The translations under genes were made by a program, and so were the position numbers. Of a stretch of 64,000 nt of DNA, positions 829-62,126 are shown piece by piece. Positions within the stretch are counted from its first letter, which is position 1. Every line of letters begins with the position of its first letter. Source of the DNA: a virus (taxonomy: Duplodnaviria > Caudoviricetes); the IMG/VR virus record IMGVR_UViG_3300014205_000174; one strand, written 5' to 3'. The notes below the pieces were generated by a model. The model did no database searches. It saw only the letters and a program-made list of their open reading frames with translations, and was not told the origin of the DNA.

Positions 829-2373
829 ATGTTTAACAGAGATTTTTATCCAACGCCTGACGATGTCATTGACCGTATGATATACGGGATTGATGTATCC
901 GGCAAAGTCATCCTGGAGCCCAGTGCCGGGAAGGGGAATATAGTGGACTACCTGCATGCCAATGGCGCAAAGGAAGTAATTACCTGCGAACTCAATAAAG
1001 AACTCAATATTATTCTTCAGAGCAAGAGCCGCGTTATTGCTCATGACTTCCTGACGCTAAAGTCCGATGATGTAAGCCACATAAACCTCATCATAGGCAA
1101 TCCCCCATTCAGCGCAGATGACAAGCACATTCTGCATGCGTACAACATTGCTCCGCCTGGGTGCACCGTGGTCATGCTGTGCAACTACTCTATATACAAA
1201 AACCCATATACTAAAGTTCGGGAACAACTCTGGAGCCTTATCCGTGAAAACGGGAAAATAGAAAACCTCGGTAACTGCTTTGATAATGCAGAGCGGACTA
1301 CCAATGTCGAGGTTGGCTGCATCCATTTAAAGAAGCCAGGCAACGGCTACGACCAGGAATTTGAAGGTTTTTTTATGCAGGAGGAAGTAGAGGCGCAGGA
1401 AAACGGCATAATGCCCTACAGCATCATACGCGACCTCGTAAACAGGTATGTGGCCGCAGTGAAGTTATTTGACGAGCAAACGGACATGGGCGTAAGAATG
1501 AACCAGCTCACGTCTACGTTTTTTAGCAGCGAGCTGTCCTTTTCCTGCTCCTCTGATAAAGCACCGATACTGCGCAAGGATTTTCGCAAAGACCTTCAGA
1601 AATCTGCATGGCGCTGGGTATTCAGTAAAATGAATATGCAGAAGTACACGACCAAGGGCCTGATGGACGATATCAATAAGTTTGTTGAGAAACAAAACGA
1701 TGTACCTTTTACCATGCGCAACATCTATAAAATGATAGAGATTGTGGTCAATACCACTGATAGCCGCATGGACAGGGCCATAATAGAGGTTTTTGACAAG
1801 CTGACGTCTCACTATAAGGAGAACCGGTATAATGTCGAGGGATGGGCCACGAACAGCCATTACCTTGTAAATGAGAAATTTATCATGCCTGGGCTTTGCA
1901 CGCCTGGATTTAAGGGGCAAATAGAAATAAAATCCTATCGGAGTTCAAATTACGAATTGGTAGAAGATATGGCAAAGGCCCTGTGTTTTCTTACCAGAAA
2001 AAATTATGATGAAATCATATCGCTCCAGTCCTTTATTGATTATAGGTATCTACTGATGAAGGATGGGCACATTGTAAGCAGAACAACCGAAAATTACAGC
2101 GCCTGCTTTCACAGGTTGTCGGAAGCGAAATCGGCACAGAAAAAATTCGCAGAAAACGGGGTGAATGTCAGCATACATGACCGGCAGATTTATTGGGGAG
2201 AATGGTTTGAATGGTCTTTCTTCGAAATAAAGTGCTACAAAAAGGGTACAGCCCATATGAAATTTAAAGACAGGGATATCTGGGCCTTGTTCAACCAAAA
2301 TGTGTCGCGCATCAAGGGTTACCCGCTTCCGGAAGGCGTTTTCAGAAAAGAAAAAACAAAAAAAGCAGTATAA
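829..2373 (+). CDS. N6-adenine DNA methyltransferase with DUF4942-like C-terminal domain
   Basis: DFYPTP, motif I ILEPSAGKG, motif IV IGNPPF; C-terminal FFEIKCYKKGTAHMKF. Confidence 0.85.
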   Translation: MFNRDFYPTPDDVIDRMIYGIDVSGKVILEPSAGKGNIVDYLHANGAKEVITCELNKELNIILQSKSRVIAHDFLTLKSDDVSHINLIIGNPPFSADDKHILHAYNIAPPGCTVVMLCNYSIYKNPYTKVREQLWSLIRENGKIENLGNCFDNAERTTNVEVGCIHLKKPGNGYDQEFEGFFMQEEVEAQENGIMPYSIIRDLVNRYVAAVKLFDEQTDMGVRMNQLTSTFFSSELSFSCSSDKAPILRKDFRKDLQKSAWRWVFSKMNMQKYTTKGLMDDINKFVEKQNDVPFTMRNIYKMIEIVVNTTDSRMDRAIIEVFDKLTSHYKENRYNVEGWATNSHYLVNEKFIMPGLCTPGFKGQIEIKSYRSSNYELVEDMAKALCFLTRKNYDEIISLQSFIDYRYLLMKDGHIVSRTTENYSACFHRLSEAKSAQKKFAENGVNVSIHDRQIYWGEWFEWSFFEIKCYKKGTAHMKFKDRDIWALFNQNVSRIKGYPLPEGVFRKEKTKKAV

Positions 2374-4938: not shown

Positions 4939-5361
4939 ATGGAAAACAGAATTACATCGGAAAATATTACATCGCTCAAAGAAGGCGAGATATTTGTCTT
5001 CGGCTCCAACCTTTCGGGCAGACACGGCAAGTTTGCGGCCAAGCTTGCATTAAACTTTGGCGCTGTATGGGGCCAGGCTGCCGGCCTACAGGGAAACAGC
5101 TATGGCATTCCTACCAAAAACCATTCGATTACCAAAACGCTGCCTATTGACGAAATTAAACCCTATGTGGATAAATTTATCGCTGTGGCAAGGGAAAACA
5201 GCCATCTGACCTTTTTAGTTACCCAGGTTGGATGCGGGGCCGCTGGATATAAGCCAAAAGATATTGCGCCGCTCTTCCAGGAAGCCTTTGGCGTTGAGAA
5301 CATTCATCTCCCAAAATCATTCTGGCGCATCATTACCGCGCGTCACCTTAAAAAAAAATGA
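4939..5361 (+). CDS. A1S_2505-family phage protein (macro-domain-like)
   Basis: EIFVFGSNLSGRHG, GLQGNSYGIPT, FLVTQVGCGAAG motifs. Confidence 0.75.
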   Translation: MENRITSENITSLKEGEIFVFGSNLSGRHGKFAAKLALNFGAVWGQAAGLQGNSYGIPTKNHSITKTLPIDEIKPYVDKFIAVARENSHLTFLVTQVGCGAAGYKPKDIAPLFQEAFGVENIHLPKSFWRIITARHLKKK

Positions 5362-6170
5362 GCACAATGCCTGATTTCCTGTTTCAAATAAAGGGTAAAA
5401 ACGAACAGCGCGCGTGGCTATGGCCACCGCTGTGGACGGATAAGGTAACGGCCAGCGATGCCAAACAGGCCCGTTTAATGGTGGAGGAGCAGTTTGGTAT
5501 AAAAATGCCTGGACGTGTAATGCGCAAAGACATTGAAACACAGACCATCCTGCTTATTATCAAGGAAATTAAGCCAGAGGATACTTATACTTTGGCTATG
5601 TGGGATAAACACCAGTGTAAGTTGTGCGCAAAGGAGTACACGCTTGTCGAGCGCTATCAGTTAGGTTATAACGGAGGTGGGCAGGAATTTTGTTCCTACA
5701 AATGCAGCAAAGAATATAATACGGTAGCTTCTTACGTGGAAGCCTTTAACCAGAGTGGCAACGGCAAGCACCCGCCTGTTATTTATAAGGTTACCAACAA
5801 GATTAATGGCATGTGCTACATTGGCAAGACCATGCAGGCCTTTACCTTCAGGTGGTACCAGCACTTCTTCCAGGGCCGCACCAGCAAATTTCACAAAGCC
5901 ATTAAAACCTACGCATACACTGACTGGACATTTGAGGTCATAGAGATTGTGCAGCTCCCATCGGATACTAAGAACATATCCACCATGAATGATTTCATCT
6001 TCAGCCGGGAAATGCACTGGATTAACCACTATGACAGCATAAAGAATGGCTACAACTCGGTGAACTCAAAAAATGAATTCGAGGAGGAAGTAACGGATGT
6101 ACACCCAAATATTTCCAGTACTATTTTCGAATGCCTCGACAACCAACAAACTGTTGAAAACTCGCAGTAA
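5358..6170 (+). CDS. GIY-YIG nuclease with N-terminal zinc finger
   Basis: VIYKVTNKINGMCYIGKT, RWYQH, E..WI..YDS..NGYN; upstream CxxC...FCSxxC. Confidence 0.8.
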   Translation: MSTMPDFLFQIKGKNEQRAWLWPPLWTDKVTASDAKQARLMVEEQFGIKMPGRVMRKDIETQTILLIIKEIKPEDTYTLAMWDKHQCKLCAKEYTLVERYQLGYNGGGQEFCSYKCSKEYNTVASYVEAFNQSGNGKHPPVIYKVTNKINGMCYIGKTMQAFTFRWYQHFFQGRTSKFHKAIKTYAYTDWTFEVIEIVQLPSDTKNISTMNDFIFSREMHWINHYDSIKNGYNSVNSKNEFEEEVTDVHPNISSTIFECLDNQQTVENSQ

Positions 6171-12945: not shown

Positions 12946-12962
12946 TGCAAATCCCGTGCCAA
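12946..12962 (-). promoter_or_regulatory. sigma54-type promoter driving the leftward block
   Basis: Minus-strand TTGGCACGGGATTTGCA, 24 nt before ATG at 12922. Confidence 0.7.
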
Positions 12963-13868: not shown

Positions 13869-14737
13869 TTTTGCCGCAGCAAAAGGTGCAGCGAAGTGCG
13901 TAGCAACATGCGCAACTGGTTTCAATTCAATACACAGCACGAATAAATATGGCACGCATTTTGCTGTCATACACTTTGATTCTCCATTTTTCACCTTATG
14001 AATTTCAAAAGCAACACACCGAGGGGCCACCCAGGGTAATCTTTTTGATTACTTTTTTACAAATCAACTACATACACTATATTTTATTACCAATATAACT
14101 AAAAGACATTCCCGGAATGGCTCTTTTTTCGCTCAAATTCTGTTTGATTAATTCTTTGCTCAGCATTTTGCCGCAGCAAAATTTACAGCAAGTGTGCAAT
14201 CAAATAGTTCACCAACCTCATTTTTTACCACAATCACACATTTATGTCGACCAGAAAGAAGGAATACTACATGAAGTTCAATGTAAAGGACTTCATGACC
14301 GACCAAAAGCTCCAGGAGTGCGGCCCAGCGGCCAATGGAGTCTACATTCACATACTTTGCGTGCTCTTTAATTCTGAAGAAAGGGGCAGATATTTATTCA
14401 AAACGGACGAAATAAAGCAATTTGCAGACATTTTGCCGCAGCAAAATGCGCAGCAAATAAATCAGCAAACGGAACAGCAAATAAAAAACATTTGCTGTGT
14501 TTTTGCCGGACGACTTGTTAAACATTTGCCGTTTTCAGAAAGAGAGGTTGAGTCTGGTTTAGTGGAGCTTATATTAAATAATGTATTATACTTTGAAGGC
14601 TTTTATCTATGTCAAAAAAGGATGATTCATGACGCAAGTGTAAGTAAATCAAGGAGTAACGCTGGCCGTAAAGGTGCAATGGTCACAAACAGCAGAAAAA
14701 ACGGGGCAAATCCGGGTGTAATTTTGCCGCAGCAAAA
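13869..14737. repeat. palindromic iterons, putative replication origin
   Basis: TTTTGCCGCAGCAAAA at 13869, 14166, 14431 and 14722 (last two inside the initiator gene), with CAGCAAA sub-repeats. Confidence 0.75.
13949..13965 (+). promoter_or_regulatory. sigma54-type promoter upstream of the replication genes
   Basis: ATGGCACGCATTTTGCT. Confidence 0.7.
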
Positions 14738-29808: not shown

Positions 29809-29825
29809 TTGGCACGCTTATTGCA
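29809..29825 (+). promoter_or_regulatory. sigma54-type promoter
   Basis: TTGGCACGCTTATTGCA before ATG 29855. Confidence 0.7.
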
Positions 29826-32213: not shown

Positions 32214-32230
32214 TTGGCACGTAATTTGCT
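32214..32230 (+). promoter_or_regulatory. sigma54-type promoter
   Basis: TTGGCACGTAATTTGCT before ATG 32255. Confidence 0.7.
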
Positions 32231-34228: not shown

Positions 34229-35428
34229 ATGTTGAAAGCATACAAATACCGCATATACCCTGACTGGAATCAGCGCAGCCTGATTAACCAGACGATGGGT
34301 TGTTGCCGATTAGTGTATAATTTGGCGCTGGAGACTAAGATACGTGCGTACAAGGAGCATGGGGTGAGTTTATCTGGCTTTGACCTTATCAACCAGTTTT
34401 CGGAAATGAAGAAGGACTACGACTGGATGAATATACCGTATAGTCACAGCATACAGTCGTCTATCCGCAACGTAGAGCGTGCATACAAGAACTTTTTTAA
34501 CGGAGCGGGGTATCCAAAATACAAAAAGAAAACCAGCCGACAGAGCTATGCCTGCCCTGACGGGAAAAGGCATATTGACTTCGATAAAAGTCTTCTAACA
34601 ATCCCCAAAATACCCGGCATTGCAATAAAGCTTGATAAGCGTGCTATAATGGGAGATATAAAGACCGTTACGGTTGCTAAAACACCAACCGACAAATACT
34701 ACGTCAGCATCCTGGTCGATACAAAGAAGGCGCTGCCGGAGAAGAAAACCATAGACCCGGACAAAACGGTAGGTATAGACCTTGGCCTTACGCACTTCAT
34801 CATACTGGATAACGGAGATAAGTTCGACAACCCGCGCTTTCTGCGAGAGCATCTTGATAGGTTGAAATACCTGCAAAGGAAAGCGTCAAGAAAACAAAAA
34901 GGCAGTAAGAACCGGAAGAAAGCAAATAAGCTGGTTGCTGCCCAACACGAGAAAATAGGCAACAAGCGTAATGATTATCTGCAAAAACTCAGTACTAAAT
35001 TAGTTGGCGATAACCAAGCTACTACATTCTGTATTGAGAACCTTGCAGTTGCAAACATGGTCAAGAACCATAAACTGGCCCTAAGCATAAGTGATGCAAG
35101 CTGGTCTGAGTTTATCCGCATGCTGAAGTATAAATCAGAGTGGGCGGGTAAGAACGTGATAGAAATAGGCCGGTTTGAGAAAAGCACGAAAACATGTTTC
35201 TGCTGTAAGCAGGTAAACGAGACGGTAGACCTCGCTGACCGGATATGGACATGCCAAGGCTGCAATACTACCCACGATAGGGACATAAATGCGGCAAAGA
35301 ATATAAAGGAAATGGGGCTGAGTGAAGCAGGGCGGGGTACGTCCAAAAAGTCTGTGGAGCCACGAAGATTACCTCGGGCGCGGAAGCAGGAAGTCAGTAA
35401 TTACAAAGGCATCTACCTTAAAGTATGA
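34229..35428 (+). CDS. tnpB: RNA-guided endonuclease TnpB (IS200/IS605 family), no adjacent TnpA
   Basis: MLKAYKYRIYP HTH; RuvC GIDLG, IENL, DRDINAA; CxxC...CxxC zinc ribbon. Confidence 0.92.
   Translation: MLKAYKYRIYPDWNQRSLINQTMGCCRLVYNLALETKIRAYKEHGVSLSGFDLINQFSEMKKDYDWMNIPYSHSIQSSIRNVERAYKNFFNGAGYPKYKKKTSRQSYACPDGKRHIDFDKSLLTIPKIPGIAIKLDKRAIMGDIKTVTVAKTPTDKYYVSILVDTKKALPEKKTIDPDKTVGIDLGLTHFIILDNGDKFDNPRFLREHLDRLKYLQRKASRKQKGSKNRKKANKLVAAQHEKIGNKRNDYLQKLSTKLVGDNQATTFCIENLAVANMVKNHKLALSISDASWSEFIRMLKYKSEWAGKNVIEIGRFEKSTKTCFCCKQVNETVDLADRIWTCQGCNTTHDRDINAAKNIKEMGLSEAGRGTSKKSVEPRRLPRARKQEVSNYKGIYLKV
35300..35415 (+). ncRNA. putative omegaRNA overlapping the tnpB 3' end; boundaries approximate
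   Basis: GGGCGGGGTACGTCC...CTGTGGAG...GAAGCAGGAAG scaffold-like motifs. Confidence 0.55.
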
Positions 35429-51781: not shown

Positions 51782-54700
51782 ATGGGCGTAACAAAGGCCA
51801 CTAAAAATAAACCGACCAGTAAAAAGCCTTCTGCCGCGAAGGCCGGTGTTGTATTGCCTGTACCGGCAACGCCAGCTCAATTGCGCCGTCGCTGGAATAA
51901 AAAAACTAGCCAGGTGGAAAAGCTGGCAAATAATATCCAAAGCCTGCGGTATAATCTCACTACTGATATGAAGAGTGATGACCAGAAGGTGTTTCTGACG
52001 GCTCTTTGTGTAAAGTGCATGGAGCTTACTGGTGAGCGTGTCGGCAATGACGAAAGCGCTGCTAATGGGCATAGGGGTATTACTGGATTGCTTAAATCCC
52101 AGGTAAAGGTAGAAGGTAATAAGGTTTCATTCCGGTATACCGGTAAGTCCGGGGTTAACCAGGATAAATCCGTAACGGATGAAAAACTCGCTGATGGCAT
52201 ACGTCGTGCGAAGGAAATATCCAAAGCGAAGTATCTTTTTTGTACAGATGACGGGTTTAAGATAAAGAATGACCGCGTCAACAGGTATCTGGCTGACTTT
52301 GAGATTACGGCAAAGGACTTGAGGGGCTTTTCTGCCAACCGCTGGCTGATACAGAAGTTAGTGGCCAATGATATCGCTGACGAGGAGAAGGACAGAAAAA
52401 AAGACTTCAATGCATTTGCAAAGGTTGTTGCTGCGAAAGTGGGCCACGGTACCGGCATGCTGAAAAACCAATACCTCATACCGGGGTTGGAAAAGGCGTA
52501 TGTAGAGGAAGGCAAAATAATAGACATCAAGGATATTGCCGGATATAAAAAAGGTGGTGGCGTTGAAAAGATGGAAAAGGGTGGTGTTGTGGCTAAAAAA
52601 GAATCCACTAAAAAACCAAGTCCCAGTGAACCTGCGGGAAAGACAATAAAATATTCCGAGTTTAAAGAAGATATCCAAACGTTTATATTTCAGTTCCTAG
52701 AGGATAGCGGGGCTCCGGATAAGATTCTCGATAACCTATACCGCGCAAGGTTTGTGGTTAAGCCGTATCCTATAAAAAATATTTCTCCGGAAGTAAATGA
52801 GGCGTCCCTGGATAAAGACCGGGGTGTACAACATGCGGCAAAGTTCAAAAAAGACAAGTACCAGCCGGTAATATTTTTCAACAACAAACTGATTGATGGC
52901 TTCCACAGGGCCTATTCTGAAAAACAAAAGGGTGCATCGGTTCTGTATGGTATCGAGCTGTCTGATGTTTTGCATGAAAAGAAGGCGGAGCTGAAGGCCG
53001 GCGGCCAGGTATCCAAGCCCGACCCATTTAACGAATGGTTTGCCGGCAGTAAAGTTGTCGATAGCAAGGGCCAGCCACTTATTGTTTATCATGGCACCGA
53101 TGCTGAAAATATTACAACATTCAATATTGATTTAGTTCGCGATAAATTTGGTTTCTGGTTTTCTGACGATAAGGAGTTCTCGGAAATGTTTGGCACTACA
53201 GCCATACCGGTATACCTGTGCATTAAAAACCCGCATGTAATAAGCAAAGAAAAATGGGACGATATCCGACGTGCGCATGCAAAAGATGCAGTGTGGTTTG
53301 CATCATGGCGTGACCAGTTAATATCCAAAGGTAAAGATGCGCTGATAATTGAAAGCAGCGATACGACCTTTGCTGGCACGAAAATACGTAATCCAGAAAT
53401 TTATGCGGTATTCCATCCAACGCAAATAAAGCTTGCTGACGGCTCCAATACCACATTTGACGGCAACAACCCAGACATTCGATTTGAGAAGGGCGGCCAT
53501 ATATATCGCAGTGTTGGCATGGAAGGTTACCTGGTGGGTAAAAGCAGGTGTCCATATATCGGCAAAGAAAAAGAAATTGATGCTTACGACACGGATATCC
53601 GTTGCTTCGTTTCCGAAACCAACGATACCTACCGGTTTATTTATGTTGTAAACAAAAAGAATGTTTCCGTTCTTCATATTCAAAAGGAAGGTGCTGACTG
53701 GGTAATCCGCAATGCATTTACCTTAGAGCATCACCGCAGACATGGGTATGGCCGGAGTCTTTACCTTGAGGCGCAGAAACATTTGCGCAGAGTTGTATTT
53801 TCGTCCAATTTGAGCCAGGAAGGCAAGGCATTTAAAGAAAATGTTACTCTAGAAATGCATATTGGTAATAATACGGAAATCGGTAGGATTGACGATGAAA
53901 CAGATACCCAGTTTCAGATAAAAGGAACGTGGTATGCAAAATGGATAATAAAGCCAGCGGCGGTCGCTGAAGATAATGAAGGTATACTTGTTCCGGATAA
54001 GATAAAGCCGACGATGATTATATCTGCATTTTCAAATGAGATGGATTGGGATAAGGTAGAGCGGTATGCTGATATTATGAAGGAAAGTGGTATGGAGCAT
54101 GGTTTCCCTGCTATATCTGGGTATCCTATTATTATTGATGAAAACGAAATTGGAGACCAGTTTCTTACCGGTGAGGAAGTGTCTGAACATCATGTTGGTC
54201 AGTTAGCGTGGAAGGTAACCAACGGCCATCATCGTTCTTTGGGGGCCATAAAGGCAGCTCTGCCATGGATTGACGTTGAGCTTGATTATAGTACGGTAAC
54301 TAACATGGAGCGCCATAAGCGCACAAACGGCAAGTACTACGAATCTGGCGGCATTACCGAAGATGATGAACCGAAGTCGACATTAGACCAGCTAAAAGAA
54401 GATGTTTCCGCTTGCAGGAACTTTGACATTTTCAGGGGCAGAATTGCCCTGCGCGAACCAGATGAGGTTAACGAGATAATGACTGTCCTTGGTCTTGAAA
54501 AAGCAACTACCAGGGAAATTGGTGATATTAATCTGAAAAAGCTGAAGGACTTTTATACTCAGGAAAAGCGCATAGTAAATGAGCGTCGTAAGATAAGGGG
54601 CAATGAGGCGGCAGCTATCCGCACTGAAAAAAATGTTGAGAATATCTTTGACCTTGCTAAAATATTAGGTGACGACATGGATAAGGCTGTACTGGATTAC

Positions 54701-56251
54701 GAAGAAAAGAAAGCCGCTATCAAATACCCGGTACAATTAATTACCGTGGAGCCATCTATTTTAGATGTGCTCAATGGCCTTTCGGATAAAGGATGCAGGG
54801 CGCTGATAGTTGGTGGCGCTGTCCGTGACGCTATTCTGGGCATCACCCCGAAAGATATAGACATAGAGGTTTATAACATAACCTACGCAGACCTGAGCGA
54901 ATACTTATCGCAGTACGGGAGAGTTAACCTTGTTGGTAAGAACTTTGGGGTTATTAAGTTTAATCCGGCAGCAGGTGGAATGGAATACGACTTCTCCGTT
55001 CCAAGAAGGGAAAACAAGATAGGTGTAGGCCACAAAGAATTTGAAGTGACCTTTGATACCACCATGACCATAAAGGATGCCGCAATGCGCAGGGACTTTA
55101 CGTTTAACTCCCTTGCGTATGACCCGGTATCCAATACGGTGTATGATTACTTTAATGGCCTGATGGATATCCGGCTCAAAGTAATAAGGCACACGTCTGA
55201 AAAGTTTACTGAGGACGCGCTGAGAATACTCAGGGCCATGCAGTTCCAAGCCAGATTTGATTTCACCATCGCTGAGGATACCAATACCTTAATGCGGGAA
55301 ATGCTTACTACCTCTGATGAGTTTGCATCCTTGCCAAAGGAGCGTGTTTTCGAAGAGTGGTACAAGTGGGCCTCAAAGGGCGTCCGCCACGACCTTATAT
55401 TCTCGTTCATGCGGGATTGCGGCCTTATCGACTGCTACCCGGTATTAAAGGCGCTGGCAGAAACGCCGCAGGACGCTGTGTATCACCCGGAGGGGAATGT
55501 GGAGGTGCACACTACCTTATGTCTGACTTATATGGACTCTATCTTGTCCCGGATGCCGGATATCCCGGCTGACGAGAAAGTAGTGCTGGTAATGTCCACG
55601 CTGCTTCATGATGTCGGTAAGCCTGCAACTACAGAGGAGCAGCTAAAGAATGGCAGAATGACGATTACAAGCAATGGCCATGAGGCATTGGGCGGTAAGA
55701 TGTGTCATGATTTTTTACCTTCGCTTGGGTTCCATAAAGATTTGGTAGACCCTATAGCTAATATTGTAGCTAATCATTTGGCTGGCGTGAATATTACCAT
55801 GATACCGCATGAGAGTGGCAGGGTAAAGGCAGTAAAGAAGCTAAGTAAGCGATTGTACCCGGCAACTATCCAGCAATTGCTGCATGTGATGGATGCAGAC
55901 AGTAATGGGCGTGGCTGGGAAGAATACAAAGAACCTACCGGTGCAAAGGAGCTGACGACCATAGCCGCAGACATAAACGTGACGGACAGGCCCTATGAAT
56001 TTATACTTCTGGGGCGTCACCTTATAGAAGCAGGGCTAAAGCCGTCTCCTGCATTCGGGGAGATTTTACGTAAAGCAAACGAGGCCCAGTTAAACGGCGA
56101 ATTTAATGATATTACCGGTGGCAGGCAGTGGCTGAAGGATAATTTGGATAGCTTTGTCAATGGCGGCATTATTAGTGCACCAGTTGATTTGTTTGCCGAC
56201 TCGCCTGGTGCACCAGTTGTAAATAGTGCAGTGCCGGACTTATTTCAATAA
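51782..56251 (+). CDS. polyvalent protein: topoisomerase IB / ParB-like / ART-like / GNAT / ParB-like / CCA-adding enzyme with HD domain
   Basis: TopoIB R86, K122, R181, H222, Y231; IDGFHR; PLIVYHGT...GFWFS...E.YAVF.P.QIK; HRRHGYG; VTNGHHR; VGGAVRD..DIDIE, RRDFT.N, EDALRILR, HPEG.V..H, LLHDVGK. Confidence 0.85.
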   Translation: MGVTKATKNKPTSKKPSAAKAGVVLPVPATPAQLRRRWNKKTSQVEKLANNIQSLRYNLTTDMKSDDQKVFLTALCVKCMELTGERVGNDESAANGHRGITGLLKSQVKVEGNKVSFRYTGKSGVNQDKSVTDEKLADGIRRAKEISKAKYLFCTDDGFKIKNDRVNRYLADFEITAKDLRGFSANRWLIQKLVANDIADEEKDRKKDFNAFAKVVAAKVGHGTGMLKNQYLIPGLEKAYVEEGKIIDIKDIAGYKKGGGVEKMEKGGVVAKKESTKKPSPSEPAGKTIKYSEFKEDIQTFIFQFLEDSGAPDKILDNLYRARFVVKPYPIKNISPEVNEASLDKDRGVQHAAKFKKDKYQPVIFFNNKLIDGFHRAYSEKQKGASVLYGIELSDVLHEKKAELKAGGQVSKPDPFNEWFAGSKVVDSKGQPLIVYHGTDAENITTFNIDLVRDKFGFWFSDDKEFSEMFGTTAIPVYLCIKNPHVISKEKWDDIRRAHAKDAVWFASWRDQLISKGKDALIIESSDTTFAGTKIRNPEIYAVFHPTQIKLADGSNTTFDGNNPDIRFEKGGHIYRSVGMEGYLVGKSRCPYIGKEKEIDAYDTDIRCFVSETNDTYRFIYVVNKKNVSVLHIQKEGADWVIRNAFTLEHHRRHGYGRSLYLEAQKHLRRVVFSSNLSQEGKAFKENVTLEMHIGNNTEIGRIDDETDTQFQIKGTWYAKWIIKPAAVAEDNEGILVPDKIKPTMIISAFSNEMDWDKVERYADIMKESGMEHGFPAISGYPIIIDENEIGDQFLTGEEVSEHHVGQLAWKVTNGHHRSLGAIKAALPWIDVELDYSTVTNMERHKRTNGKYYESGGITEDDEPKSTLDQLKEDVSACRNFDIFRGRIALREPDEVNEIMTVLGLEKATTREIGDINLKKLKDFYTQEKRIVNERRKIRGNEAAAIRTEKNVENIFDLAKILGDDMDKAVLDYEEKKAAIKYPVQLITVEPSILDVLNGLSDKGCRALIVGGAVRDAILGITPKDIDIEVYNITYADLSEYLSQYGRVNLVGKNFGVIKFNPAAGGMEYDFSVPRRENKIGVGHKEFEVTFDTTMTIKDAAMRRDFTFNSLAYDPVSNTVYDYFNGLMDIRLKVIRHTSEKFTEDALRILRAMQFQARFDFTIAEDTNTLMREMLTTSDEFASLPKERVFEEWYKWASKGVRHDLIFSFMRDCGLIDCYPVLKALAETPQDAVYHPEGNVEVHTTLCLTYMDSILSRMPDIPADEKVVLVMSTLLHDVGKPATTEEQLKNGRMTITSNGHEALGGKMCHDFLPSLGFHKDLVDPIANIVANHLAGVNITMIPHESGRVKAVKKLSKRLYPATIQQLLHVMDADSNGRGWEEYKEPTGAKELTTIAADINVTDRPYEFILLGRHLIEAGLKPSPAFGEILRKANEAQLNGEFNDITGGRQWLKDNLDSFVNGGIISAPVDLFADSPGAPVVNSAVPDLFQ

Positions 56252-59746: not shown

Positions 59747-59766
59747 TGAATGTAAGATTTGAAATT

Positions 59767-59811
59767 AAAAAGTGGCAATGAAATAGTAAACTAAACTATC
59801 ACATTGCCACT
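59767..59811 (-). terminator. intrinsic terminator after the tRNA-like gene
   Basis: AGTGGCAATG/CATTGCCACT stem followed by T-tract on the minus strand. Confidence 0.75.
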
Positions 59812-59821
59812 CACATCATCG

Positions 59822-59983
59822 TCGCGCTTCATGGGCTCGAACCACGGGCCTCCACCATTGAAACTCAAAAGCTCCGGCATTATTTACACAAAGGCCAGCT
59901 TGCAATCCGGCTCCCATGCTTTAGGGCGTTTACTATTAAGTTTGCGCATCAGGGTGACGCTCTACCAACTGAGCTAAAGCGCG
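59822..59983 (-). tRNA. tRNA gene with an 89-nt insertion in the anticodon loop; isotype unresolved; no encoded CCA
   Basis: Acceptor CGCGCTT/AAGCGCG+A; D arm GCTC-AGTTGGTA-GAGC; anticodon stem TCACC/GGTGG; T arm CGTGG-TTCGAGC-CCATG; loop 96 nt instead of 7. Confidence 0.85.
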
Positions 59984-60020
59984 ATTTATTTAAAGAACTT
60001 GTTTGATTTGAATAGTGTAT

Positions 60021-60037
60021 TGCAAAGTGCGTGCCAA
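60021..60037 (-). promoter_or_regulatory. sigma54-type promoter of the tRNA-like gene
   Basis: Minus-strand TTGGCACGCACTTTGCA. Confidence 0.7.
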
Positions 60038-60785: not shown

Positions 60786-60802
60786 TGCAATTGGCGTGCC
60801 AA
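60786..60802 (-). promoter_or_regulatory. sigma54-type promoter
   Basis: Minus-strand TTGGCACGCCAATTGCA. Confidence 0.7.
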
Positions 60803-60844: not shown

Positions 60845-61028
60845 CAAAAGCCCCCCGGAATCCGTTGGGCTTTTGCTTTGATTTAGAACTTGTACGCTTG
60901 CGGCCATTTCCTGCCATTTCCGCCCGAGCTTGTCCAGTATGCTCGGTTCGTTTCTTGAAAGCTGCGGTATGTGGCCACCTTCCCGTCGCTTTCCTTTTAA
61001 TCTTTCTCTTAAATCAGTACTACAAAAT
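60845..61028 (-). ncRNA. putative structured ncRNA of unknown class
   Basis: Promoter TTGGCATGAAATTTGT-TATATTTG; nested stems TGATTTA/TAAATCA, GTGGCCA/TGGCCGC, CCGC/GCGG, CCGAGC/GCTCGG; terminal hairpin CAAAAGCCC/GGGCTTTTG. Confidence 0.5.
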
Positions 61029-61128
61029 ATAAATCAAATATAACAAATTTCATGCCAAAATATATTATTGTTATAATCCGATTTGTCTCGGTTCCACTTT
61101 TTTAATAAATTTACAGGAAAGATTCAAA

Positions 61129-61671
61129 ATGACACCAGATAAAGTAAAGAAAAGAATTTCCCCATACCTTGAAACCATTACAGAAGCATGTATATTTTAT
61201 CCTTTATTGGATACTAAAGGATATGGCAGCATTCAATATAGGGTGCCAGGGAAGAAAGTGCATTACAGAGCGCATAGGGTCTCTTTTGAATTAGCAAATA
61301 ACTGCGAATTACTGCAAGCAGATGTAATATTACACTCCTGCGATAATCCAGCATGCATTAACCCGCGCCATCTTACTAAGGGTACTCACGAAGATAATCA
61401 GCGGGATAAGATGGCTAAGGGCAGGCAGGCCAAGGGTAAAACCAATGGCAGATACGTGCATGGTTATTATTCAAAGTTTGAGCCTGTGGCAAAACCTGTT
61501 CCGGATTTTCAGACTTTATGTAACAGAAGTATTTCTCTTGAAACTGCAAAAGCGATTAAAAGCAGAATTAAAGTCGGCGGCTGCAAGTTAATAGACCTAT
61601 CTAAGGAGTTCGGCATACCGTACCAAACTATAAAAGATATTAGTGCAGGAAGGGCATATAAAAACGTATAG
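61129..61671 (+). CDS. HNH endonuclease with C-terminal HTH
   Basis: GYG...AHRVS...ILHSCDNPACINPRHL..GT..DN..D...KGR. Confidence 0.88.
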   Translation: MTPDKVKKRISPYLETITEACIFYPLLDTKGYGSIQYRVPGKKVHYRAHRVSFELANNCELLQADVILHSCDNPACINPRHLTKGTHEDNQRDKMAKGRQAKGKTNGRYVHGYYSKFEPVAKPVPDFQTLCNRSISLETAKAIKSRIKVGGCKLIDLSKEFGIPYQTIKDISAGRAYKNV

Positions 61672-61690: not shown

Positions 61691-61714
61691 TTGGCACGAG
61701 TTTTGCTATATTTG
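61691..61714 (+). promoter_or_regulatory. overlapping sigma54-type and Bacteroidota primary-sigma promoter of the tmRNA
   Basis: TTGGCACGAGTTTTGC immediately followed by TATATTTG. Confidence 0.7.
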
Positions 61715-62126
61715 TGTTGCACGTTTGTTGAGGCTTTTTGAGAATCTGTAAGACCCGAGTTCGACTCTCGGCGACTCCTCAAAATTGCGGTTAGTAATAT
61801 ATGTTGGTGTACAACAATTTATATGAAAGGGTGTATCCATTATTGCAGCTCCTGGAATTCAAACGGTTGAGCGCGAAAAAAATACACGGCGGCAGCCCGC
61901 AATGATATTATTAGTCATGAGTAAGTACATGACTCGCCACCCTATCAACACGGGGTCGACTGGCTATCGATTGCAGAGGATGGAAAGTGGAGAATGTGTA
62001 ACATTGAACGGCAACACAATTGCTTTTACTCCGGTTTACTCTATGAGAAAAACTGCGTAGTACGAAATTAAGCTCCAGCGAAAACGGGGCCAGAAGGAGC
62101 AGGCGTAAGTCTGCTCCTTTGCTTTT
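61715..62126 (+). ncRNA. ssrA: circularly permuted (two-piece) tmRNA
   Basis: Acceptor piece first (T arm CCGAG-TTCGACT-CTCGG, CGACTCC 61772-61778); coding piece starts GGGGTCG at 61952 (G3.U70); P2 TTGCAGA/TCTGTAA; tag frame 62010-62060. Confidence 0.85.
62094..62126 (+). terminator. intrinsic terminator ending the tmRNA
   Basis: AAGGAGCAGGC-GTAA-GTCTGCTCCTT with T-rich tail. Confidence 0.75.

Follow-up and report, generated by a model that had tools for sequence, protein, structure and literature searches.

The window analysed here, a stretch of 64,000 nt taken from the ~211-kb contig of a jumbo phage, carries on its minus strand a tRNA gene with a greatly enlarged anticodon loop. The coordinates of the gene are exact, with C1 at position 59983 and the discriminator A73 at position 59822. 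A preliminary description of the locus had claimed four intact tRNA stems, and inspection of the sequence confirms that all four pair (Table 1). The D loop reads AGUUGGUA and the T loop UUCGAGC, and the bases of the L-shape are all there (U8, A14, G15/C48, G18G19, A21, G26/A44, G53-C61, U54U55C56 and A58). The 21 stem pairs and the conserved tertiary bases of the tRNA body are thus all intact. The encoded 3' end of the gene lacks CCA. The two strands of the anticodon stem, however, are separated by 96 nt (CUGAUGCGC...GAGUUUCAAU) instead of the usual 7, which is the length that had been claimed. Default ARAGORN and Rfam at gathering scores make no call across the whole window, and the Rfam tRNA model (RF00005) scores the unspliced gene at 14.8 bits, compared to a cut-off of 29, aligning to its 5' half only. 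Intron-enabled ARAGORN, a check that had been proposed, calls a tRNA-Ile(GAU) with an intron of 89 nt. Moreover, when 89 nt are deleted, the resulting tRNA is accepted by default ARAGORN in eight out of eight registers.

The gene has a transcription unit of its own, as the preliminary description had also stated. Upstream of it lies an exact sigma54-type -24/-12 motif, TGGCACG-N4-TTGC, and downstream of A73 a hairpin followed by a T-run. The promoter motif is found in the window in seven exact copies and two copies with one mismatch, compared to 1.2 matches expected by chance if one mismatch is allowed. Several of these copies immediately precede a gene or RNA gene in the same orientation, and such use of sigma54-type promoters, as seen in the window, is unusual in a phage. 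Judged by the usual sigma54 geometry, a 5' leader of ~26-28 nt would have to be trimmed, presumably by RNase P. The hairpin of the terminator (59811-59771) begins nine nt past A73 and is fully paired over at least 10 bp. We take the locus to be a genuine phage tRNA gene that is transcribed separately.

Table 1. Features of the interrupted tRNA gene, its insert and related RNA elements (positions in the window unless another contig is named).
Feature	Positions	Strand	Basis or remark
Sigma54-type -24/-12 promoter motif TGGCACGcactTTGC	60022..60036	-	exact match, 38 nt upstream of tRNA position 1
All exact copies of TGGCACG-N4-TTGC	12947-12961(-), 13950-13964(+), 29810-29824(+), 32215-32229(+), 60022-60036(-), 60787-60801(-), 61692-61706(+)		
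Spacer from promoter motif to tRNA position 1	59984..60021	-	contains the inferred start site
5' exon, GAU register (tRNA positions 1-36)	59948..59983	-	ARAGORN; alignment to phage DLP_3 tRNA-Ile; acceptor 5' strand, D arm, anticodon-stem 5' strand, C32 U33 G34 A35 U36
Insert of 89 nt, GAU register, GCGCAAAC...GAGUUUCA	59859..59947	-	ARAGORN and deletion registers
3' exon, no encoded CCA	59822..59858	-	sequence, ARAGORN, deletion registers; A37 U38, anticodon-stem 3' strand, variable loop AGGCC, T arm, acceptor 3' strand, A73
Acceptor stem CGCGCUU/AAGCGCG		-	7/7 pairs
D stem GCUC/GAGC		-	4/4 pairs
Anticodon stem UCACC/GGUGG		-	5/5 pairs, one U.G
T stem CGUGG/CCAUG		-	5/5 pairs, one G.U
Fold A helix, 5' strand AAACUUAAUAGU	59932..59943	-	folding
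Fold A helix, 3' strand GCUUUUGAGUUU, then C-A, then exon AU	59861..59872	-	folding
Fold B, 63-nt four-way junction competing with Fold A	59885..59947	-	minimum free energy fold of the 63-nt piece and of the loop
Hairpin GCCGG-AUUGCAAG-CUGGC, then CUUUGUGU	59894..59911	-	simple terminator-like pattern
Hairpin GGAGCU-UUUG-AGUUUC (Fold B context)	59860..59875	-	folding
Intrinsic terminator AGUGGCAAUG...CAUUGCCACU, then UUUUUAAUUU	59762..59811	-	sequence; hairpin drawn in Rfam alignments
Candidate two-piece (permuted) tmRNA	61721-62023	+	Rfam tmRNA_permuted RF04321, 32.4 bits, E = 7e-5
Contig L073: permuted tmRNA (tag VVDYTGLQEAA), mini tRNA-like hairpin pair, then 170-nt tRNA-like gene	1801-2366	+	

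The insert sits exactly inside the 7-nt anticodon loop, to our knowledge the sole site that tolerates introns of all known tRNA types. The loop signature is kept on both of its flanks, as C32 U33 upstream and A37 downstream of the insert, and U33 and A37 are retained in every register. The register itself is ambiguous by up to 5 nt, and depending on it the 89-nt deletions yield UCA, GCA, GAA or GAU, the same four anticodons that had been put forward from the sequence. With CU-GAU of the 5' flank taken as positions 32-36 and AU of the 3' flank as positions 37-38, the tRNA reads as Ile(GAU). When the exons are provided with a CUGAUAA loop, the GenBank phage sequence that they match best belongs to a tRNA-Ile (84% over 63 nt, E = 1e-8). 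The tRNA body without its loop, compared with 851 phage tRNAs, resembles those for Val, Asn, Arg and Ile to the same degree, and the isotype therefore depends on the flank alone. Thus, tRNA-Ile(GAU) is the simplest reading of the interrupted tRNA, although the GAA, GCA and UCA registers are possible alternatives. The GAU register produces U38, which is unusual in tRNA-Ile. A Cys isotype is disfavoured by A73 under the tRNA identity rules.

We then compared the insert with the known classes of introns and small RNAs. Group I introns occur in the anticodon loops of bacterial tRNAs, for example in the pre-tRNA-Ile of Azoarcus (PMC13168695, PMC3984707), and like that gene the present one is of the tRNA-Ile type, is split just past the third anticodon base and, in the GAU register, has a 5' exon that ends in U. 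In contrast to the insert, however, group I introns need ~200 nt or more, a P3-P8 core and a terminal G (PMC13168695, PMC3984707). With 89 nt the insert has less than half the length of the smallest known group I intron, its last base in the GAU register is an A, and RF00028 is matched neither at the gathering score nor at E ≤10, in line with the earlier claim that it is too short for this class. The introns of archaeal and eukaryal tRNAs have a bulge-helix-bulge and are spliced by proteins, EndA and RtcB (PMC4090602). They share with the insert the small size, the anticodon loop and, as we infer for the insert, removal by proteins. What distinguishes them is the bulge-helix-bulge at the junctions: a scan for 4-bp helices with flanking 3-nt bulges, which bears out a further statement of the preliminary description, detects none near the exon borders and none that would place cuts at the junctions. 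Moreover, the insert is found in a bacterial-phage setting, with intrinsic terminators and the sigma54 motif, and the window contains no EndA-like ORF. Hammerhead, twister, pistol, hatchet and HDV-like ribozymes give no Rfam match at E ≤10, neither with the region nor with the insert alone. The insert contains no k-turn and no C/D box; a weak match to snoU105B (16-17 bits) lacks the D box. Finally, an origin as a MITE or from an insertion sequence is rejected, as there are no terminal inverted repeats and no duplication of the border or target, and the insert is single-copy in the 64-kb window and the fetched loci. The insert is thus neither self-splicing in a known way nor of the archaeal type. 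A novel RNA of very small size that splices or cleaves itself would fit the final U of the 5' exon, as in group I introns (GAU register), and a window in which no protein machinery is evident. We nevertheless regard this as very improbable, since 89 nt cannot contain a group I core, the last base is not a G in that register, no Rfam ribozyme matches even at the permissive threshold, and the insert shows no excess folding stability (see below).

The textbook view is that the tRNA introns of bacteria and phages are group I ribozymes. Small non-ribozyme inserts in the anticodon loops of phage tRNAs have, however, been known since 2019 (PMC6784885): Lak megaphages, which infect Prevotella, have tRNAs with 'enigmatic introns' that are unclassified in Rfam (Devoto et al. 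2019, Nat Microbiol, PMC6784885). Table S6 of that study lists four such introns of 79-114 nt in tRNA anticodon loops, and in our own reading of the printed sequences they are inserted at or next to 36/37 (PMC6784885). They consist of a 4-5 bp hairpin, an AU-rich linker of the AAAUUAAA type and a nested tRNA-like fold with the canonical T arm GGTTCGAAT, and they end with the 3' strand of the nested acceptor and C(A) directly before the exon (PMC6784885). The introns recur across several tRNAs and cohorts, and the authors consider that they may be common in large phages (PMC6784885). The preliminary description had spoken of an unrecognised small intron class. This is correct in part only, since small phage tRNA introns outside group I are already known from the Lak megaphages (PMC6784885).

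Our insert shares with the Lak introns its presence in a tRNA of a large phage, probably one of Bacteroidota, its size class (89 nt compared to 79-114 nt) and the lack of an Rfam class. The likely position at 36/37 is also the same, with an ambiguous register (CUGAU / ... UGAGUUU-CA / AU, where slashes mark the exon borders), and so is an AU-rich acceptor-like 3' strand followed by C(A) before the exon, here UGAGUUU-C-A and then AU. The best matches of a methyltransferase encoded in the window are in phages of Flavobacteriia. Unlike the Lak introns, however, the insert has no nested tRNA or T-arm motif, no 5' hairpin and no AU-rich linker of the AAAUUAAA type, its leader before the terminal helix is only 4 nt long, and it is a singleton. 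Apart from the outer T arm no GGTTCGA-type motif is present, and the Rfam tRNA model misses the insert. The 63-nt four-way junction, considered as a candidate for a nested tRNA, has an 8-nt AUUGCAAG loop and a folding energy equal to that of shuffled sequences.

We tentatively favour, with a probability of about 40%, that the insert is a small phage tRNA intron spliced by proteins and represents a variant of the poorly understood Lak kind. This reading is supported by the canonical tRNA body, which passes default ARAGORN after every 89-nt deletion, by the strong promoter motif and the terminator of the gene, by the placement of the insert exactly in the 7-nt loop with the loop signature on both flanks and by the match of the exons with the CUGAUAA loop to a phage tRNA-Ile. 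It is further supported by the Lak precedent as regards size, the position at 36/37 and the C(A) ending (PMC6784885), by a stem that starts at the first base of the insert next to a 5-bp hairpin, an arrangement found in only 23 of 5000 shuffles, and by a CCA-adding/HD domain encoded 3.6 kb away from a gene without encoded CCA. Several observations argue against it: no homologue was found in any collection searched, the T-arm motif, nested tRNA, 5' hairpin and linker of the Lak introns are missing, and the U38 of the GAU register is atypical. The folding of the insert and the gene content of the window, described below, weigh in the same direction.

As had been noted before, the insert folds back on itself and contains an inner GCCGG/CUGGC hairpin. 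In Fold A its two ends are joined by a 12-position helix, AAACUUAAUAGU/GCUUUUGAGUUU, made of 11 pairs and one U.U, with four nt (GCGC) separating GAU from the helix. A helix of at least 8 pairs at the termini of the insert was obtained in 80 of 3000 shuffles. Fold B has a closing stem of 7 bp, GCGCAAA/UUUGUGU, which begins at the base directly after GAU, and includes the hairpins CCC/GGG and GCCGG/CUGGC inside its junction. The number of shuffles with this geometry, a stem from the first base of the insert plus an adjacent 5-bp hairpin, rises from the 23 mentioned above, for which the start was fixed, to 139 of 5000 if any of 7 starts is accepted. Both of these geometry tests were picked after the folds were known and their p-values are ~0.005-0.03, so that they provide hints only, which counts against the spliced reading. 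In the context of Fold B a 6-bp hairpin, GGAGCU/AGUUUC, stops 1 nt short of the 3' exon in the GAU register and abuts it in the GAA register. With the cloverleaf held fixed, Fold A has an energy of -40.9 and Fold B of -43.6 kcal/mol, compared to a constrained optimum of -46.0 kcal/mol. An excess of stability over dinucleotide shuffles is absent for the insert (z = +0.37) and the whole RNA (z = -0.35), and the 63-nt piece of Fold B also equals its shuffles (z = -0.05). The tRNA body is far beyond chance, whereas the structure of the insert has no such excess, which again argues against splicing. The same applies to the fact that the junction-defining helices of the two folds are mutually exclusive and that neither alone defines both cuts. 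The GCCGG/CUGGC hairpin resembles a terminator, which, if active, would produce an RNA of ~100 nt with only the 5' half of the tRNA.

If the insert is spliced, the precursor would be transcribed from the sigma54-type promoter, would end at the terminator and would have its 5' leader removed by RNase P. The helices that abut the junctions may then offer the insert to ordinary tRNA end-processing nucleases; these are the 7-bp stem right after GAU and, on the other side, the 12-position helix or the 6-bp hairpin, which end 1-2 nt before the 3' exon. The tRNA halves would be joined by an RNA ligase, and CCA would be added by the CCA-adding domain of a neighbouring polyvalent protein or by a host enzyme. 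A more specific version does without any dedicated ribozyme or splicing endonuclease: the stem of Fold B would direct a cut by RNase P, the helix of Fold A together with a discriminator-like C would direct an RNase Z-type cut, and an RNA ligase acting on 3'-OH and 5'-P ends would seal the exons. We consider this two-fold scheme improbable. If true, it would make the insert a stripped-down relative of the nested-tRNA introns of Lak phages and represent a third general route of tRNA splicing.

The polyvalent protein in question (1489 aa, 51782-56251, plus strand) is encoded 3.6 kb from the tRNA and combines a topoisomerase IB, an ART-PolyVal domain and the head of a class II CCA-adding enzyme/poly(A) polymerase with an HD domain. 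Its equivalent in related phages lacks the CCA-adding part. Pfam scans of 39 ORFs of the window, which covers ~30% of the genome, detected no RNA ligase, EndA or other splicing endonuclease, which argues against the spliced reading within that part of the genome. In four related contigs (L124, L126, L127 and L129) the gene order is kept, with the polyvalent protein and a large protein followed further on by a 160-aa protein and a helicase. The stretch between the large protein and the 160-aa protein, in which the tRNA resides, has nothing in common with these four contigs.

We searched for relatives of the gene in several collections. Among GenBank phages blastn found no homologue, either with the 401-nt region (E ≤1e-5) or with the insert alone (E ≤10). 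An exact pattern in which the strands of the anticodon stem are 85-115 nt apart retrieved from IMG/VR only five unrelated coding matches, and a pattern of the T arm plus acceptor had no match in IMG/VR or in JGI metagenomes, nor did a profile of the conserved 160-aa neighbour. Neither the hairpin of the insert nor the 5' exon was found in GTDB genomes. Syntenic relatives collected through an 833-aa protein (L124-L129), which has no PDB relative, keep the flanking modules and not the tRNA segment. Contigs with homologues of the upstream 116-aa gene that are 59-76% identical (L133-L136) have no tRNA at that place. Since no homologue was found in the collections searched, there is no covariation and no intron-less allele that would fix the junctions. 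A single sequence without found relatives is a lead, not a result.

These results would suit a dead gene, in which a once-normal tRNA in a fast-changing accessory region received an 89-bp insertion, such as the remnant of a larger intron or mobile element, and has not yet decayed. The gene is a singleton that no relative shares, the structure of its insert is not beyond chance, and the segment differs wholly between related phages and has ORFs of the homing-endonuclease type nearby, such as one that resembles His-Me finger endonucleases and lies at a distance of 1.1 kb from the tRNA (61129-61671, plus strand). The 21 stem pairs and the tertiary bases are intact, however, the promoter is exact and the terminator hairpin fully paired, a random insertion would strike the 7-nt loop in only ~1/10 of cases, and terminal inverted repeats, a target duplication or a second copy are missing. 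We therefore find a dead gene somewhat unlikely.

A broader scan of IMG/VR, from D arm to T arm, recovered 118 loci, 113 of which are tandem tRNA pairs and three single ARAGORN calls; the remaining two, L073 and L107, have real inserts. Intron-enabled ARAGORN run over all loci produced mostly chimeras of adjacent tRNAs. L073 (IMGVR_UViG_3300031867_000022) is a complete, unrelated phage of 100 kb with a 170-nt tRNA-like gene that contains a 94-nt insert and lies 83 nt downstream of a permuted tmRNA. Its tRNA-like gene and ours have the same D arm and T loop, carry inserts of comparable length at the anticodon arm, lie near a permuted tmRNA (a candidate in our case) and contain the short words GUGUAAA, GUUUCAA and CAUGG. 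In L073, by contrast, the anticodon stem runs on as an uninterrupted 14-bp helix without remnants of a loop, and its folding stability is significant (z = -2.7), so that its tRNA-like gene looks like an unspliced RNA. A scan of IMG/VR for the combined motifs common to both genes retrieved L073 itself only and does not show a family that links the two. In the other locus, L107 (1479-1630, minus strand), the loop of a GC-rich tRNA opens with a full CUCAUAA (Met), which is followed by a 76-nt insert. This is probably a haloarchaeal-type tRNA-Met intron on a viral contig.

The surroundings of the interrupted gene contain further unusual RNAs. The permuted-tmRNA candidate, 1.7 kb away, stays below the RF04321 gathering score of 47 and is not called by ARAGORN, and it is preceded by the promoter motif at 61692-61706. 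It has the T arm CCGAG-UUCGACU-CUCGG and a CGACUCC ahead of GGGGUCG, which yields a G3.U70 pair. On the minus strand, ~180 nt without a long ORF (~60845-61030) have TGGCATG-N4-TTGT before them and a GC hairpin with a U-run at their end; this small RNA candidate has no Rfam match at E ≤1 on that strand. In related phages the same variable region contains a tRNA-like RNA of 138 nt (L126:14101-14238, L127:15078-15215 and L128:7174-7311, all on the minus strand). Its 7-bp acceptor stem is perfect and its T arm canonical, whereas the body is oversized and includes GGGGUCGA, a complement of the T arm. Because the three copies hardly differ, they provide no covariation.

Such RNAs bear on whether the 162-nt RNA might itself be the final, non-decoding product, in which a folded 96-nt domain replaces the anticodon arm. 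It could serve as a decoy or sponge for host enzymes that target tRNAs, could carry the embedded RNA, or could act together with the trans-translation-type RNAs next to it. A promoter and terminator of its own together with a perfect L-shaped body would confer stability and correct end processing on such an RNA; the tmRNA candidate and the terminator-ended RNA are close by, L073 pairs a permuted tmRNA with an insert-bearing tRNA-like gene that has no loop to splice (z = -2.7), and related phages have their oversized tRNA-like RNA in the same region. On the other hand, neither thermodynamics nor comparison gives a sign that the structure of the insert is under selection, and U33 and A37, kept in every register, are expected of an interrupted decoding tRNA and needless in a mimic. 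Moreover, no target or partner can be named, and the link to tmRNA consists of two cases only, while RNA genes of phages cluster anyway. On balance we judge an unspliced product to be somewhat unlikely.

The proximity of the permuted-tmRNA candidate also bears on whether the gene could be a miniature, one-piece tmRNA-like molecule, made of a tRNA body and a short tag reading frame. The insert contains an ORF of 21 codons, MRKLNSKRPKAWEPDCKLAFV (59884-59949, minus strand), the AUG of which, at 59949, overlaps the anticodon and the stop codon of which is at 59884-59886. By chance alone, roughly a third of all frames would stay open over this length. ARAGORN makes a tmRNA-like call, but only at a score threshold of 60% and alongside eight other spurious calls. 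The gene has C3-G70 instead of the G3.U70 pair, a full D arm and a complete anticodon stem, which are absent from tmRNAs, and no Rfam tmRNA match. A tmRNA is thus rejected, and we see hardly any likelihood for the miniature version.

We know of no study that shows how, or whether, the small inserts of phage tRNAs are removed. If the present insert is spliced, as we favour, its lack of a nested tRNA shape would restrict the features by which the removal machinery can recognise such inserts. If it is not, the gene would show that a tRNA body can occur in nature as the scaffold for another RNA. Spliced or not, it is relevant to the tuning or protection of translation by large phages. Finally, the window contains two more free-standing genes of the nuclease or mobile-element kind, namely a GIY-YIG ORF at 5358-6170 and an IS605-family OrfB/TnpB at 34229-35428, both on the plus strand.
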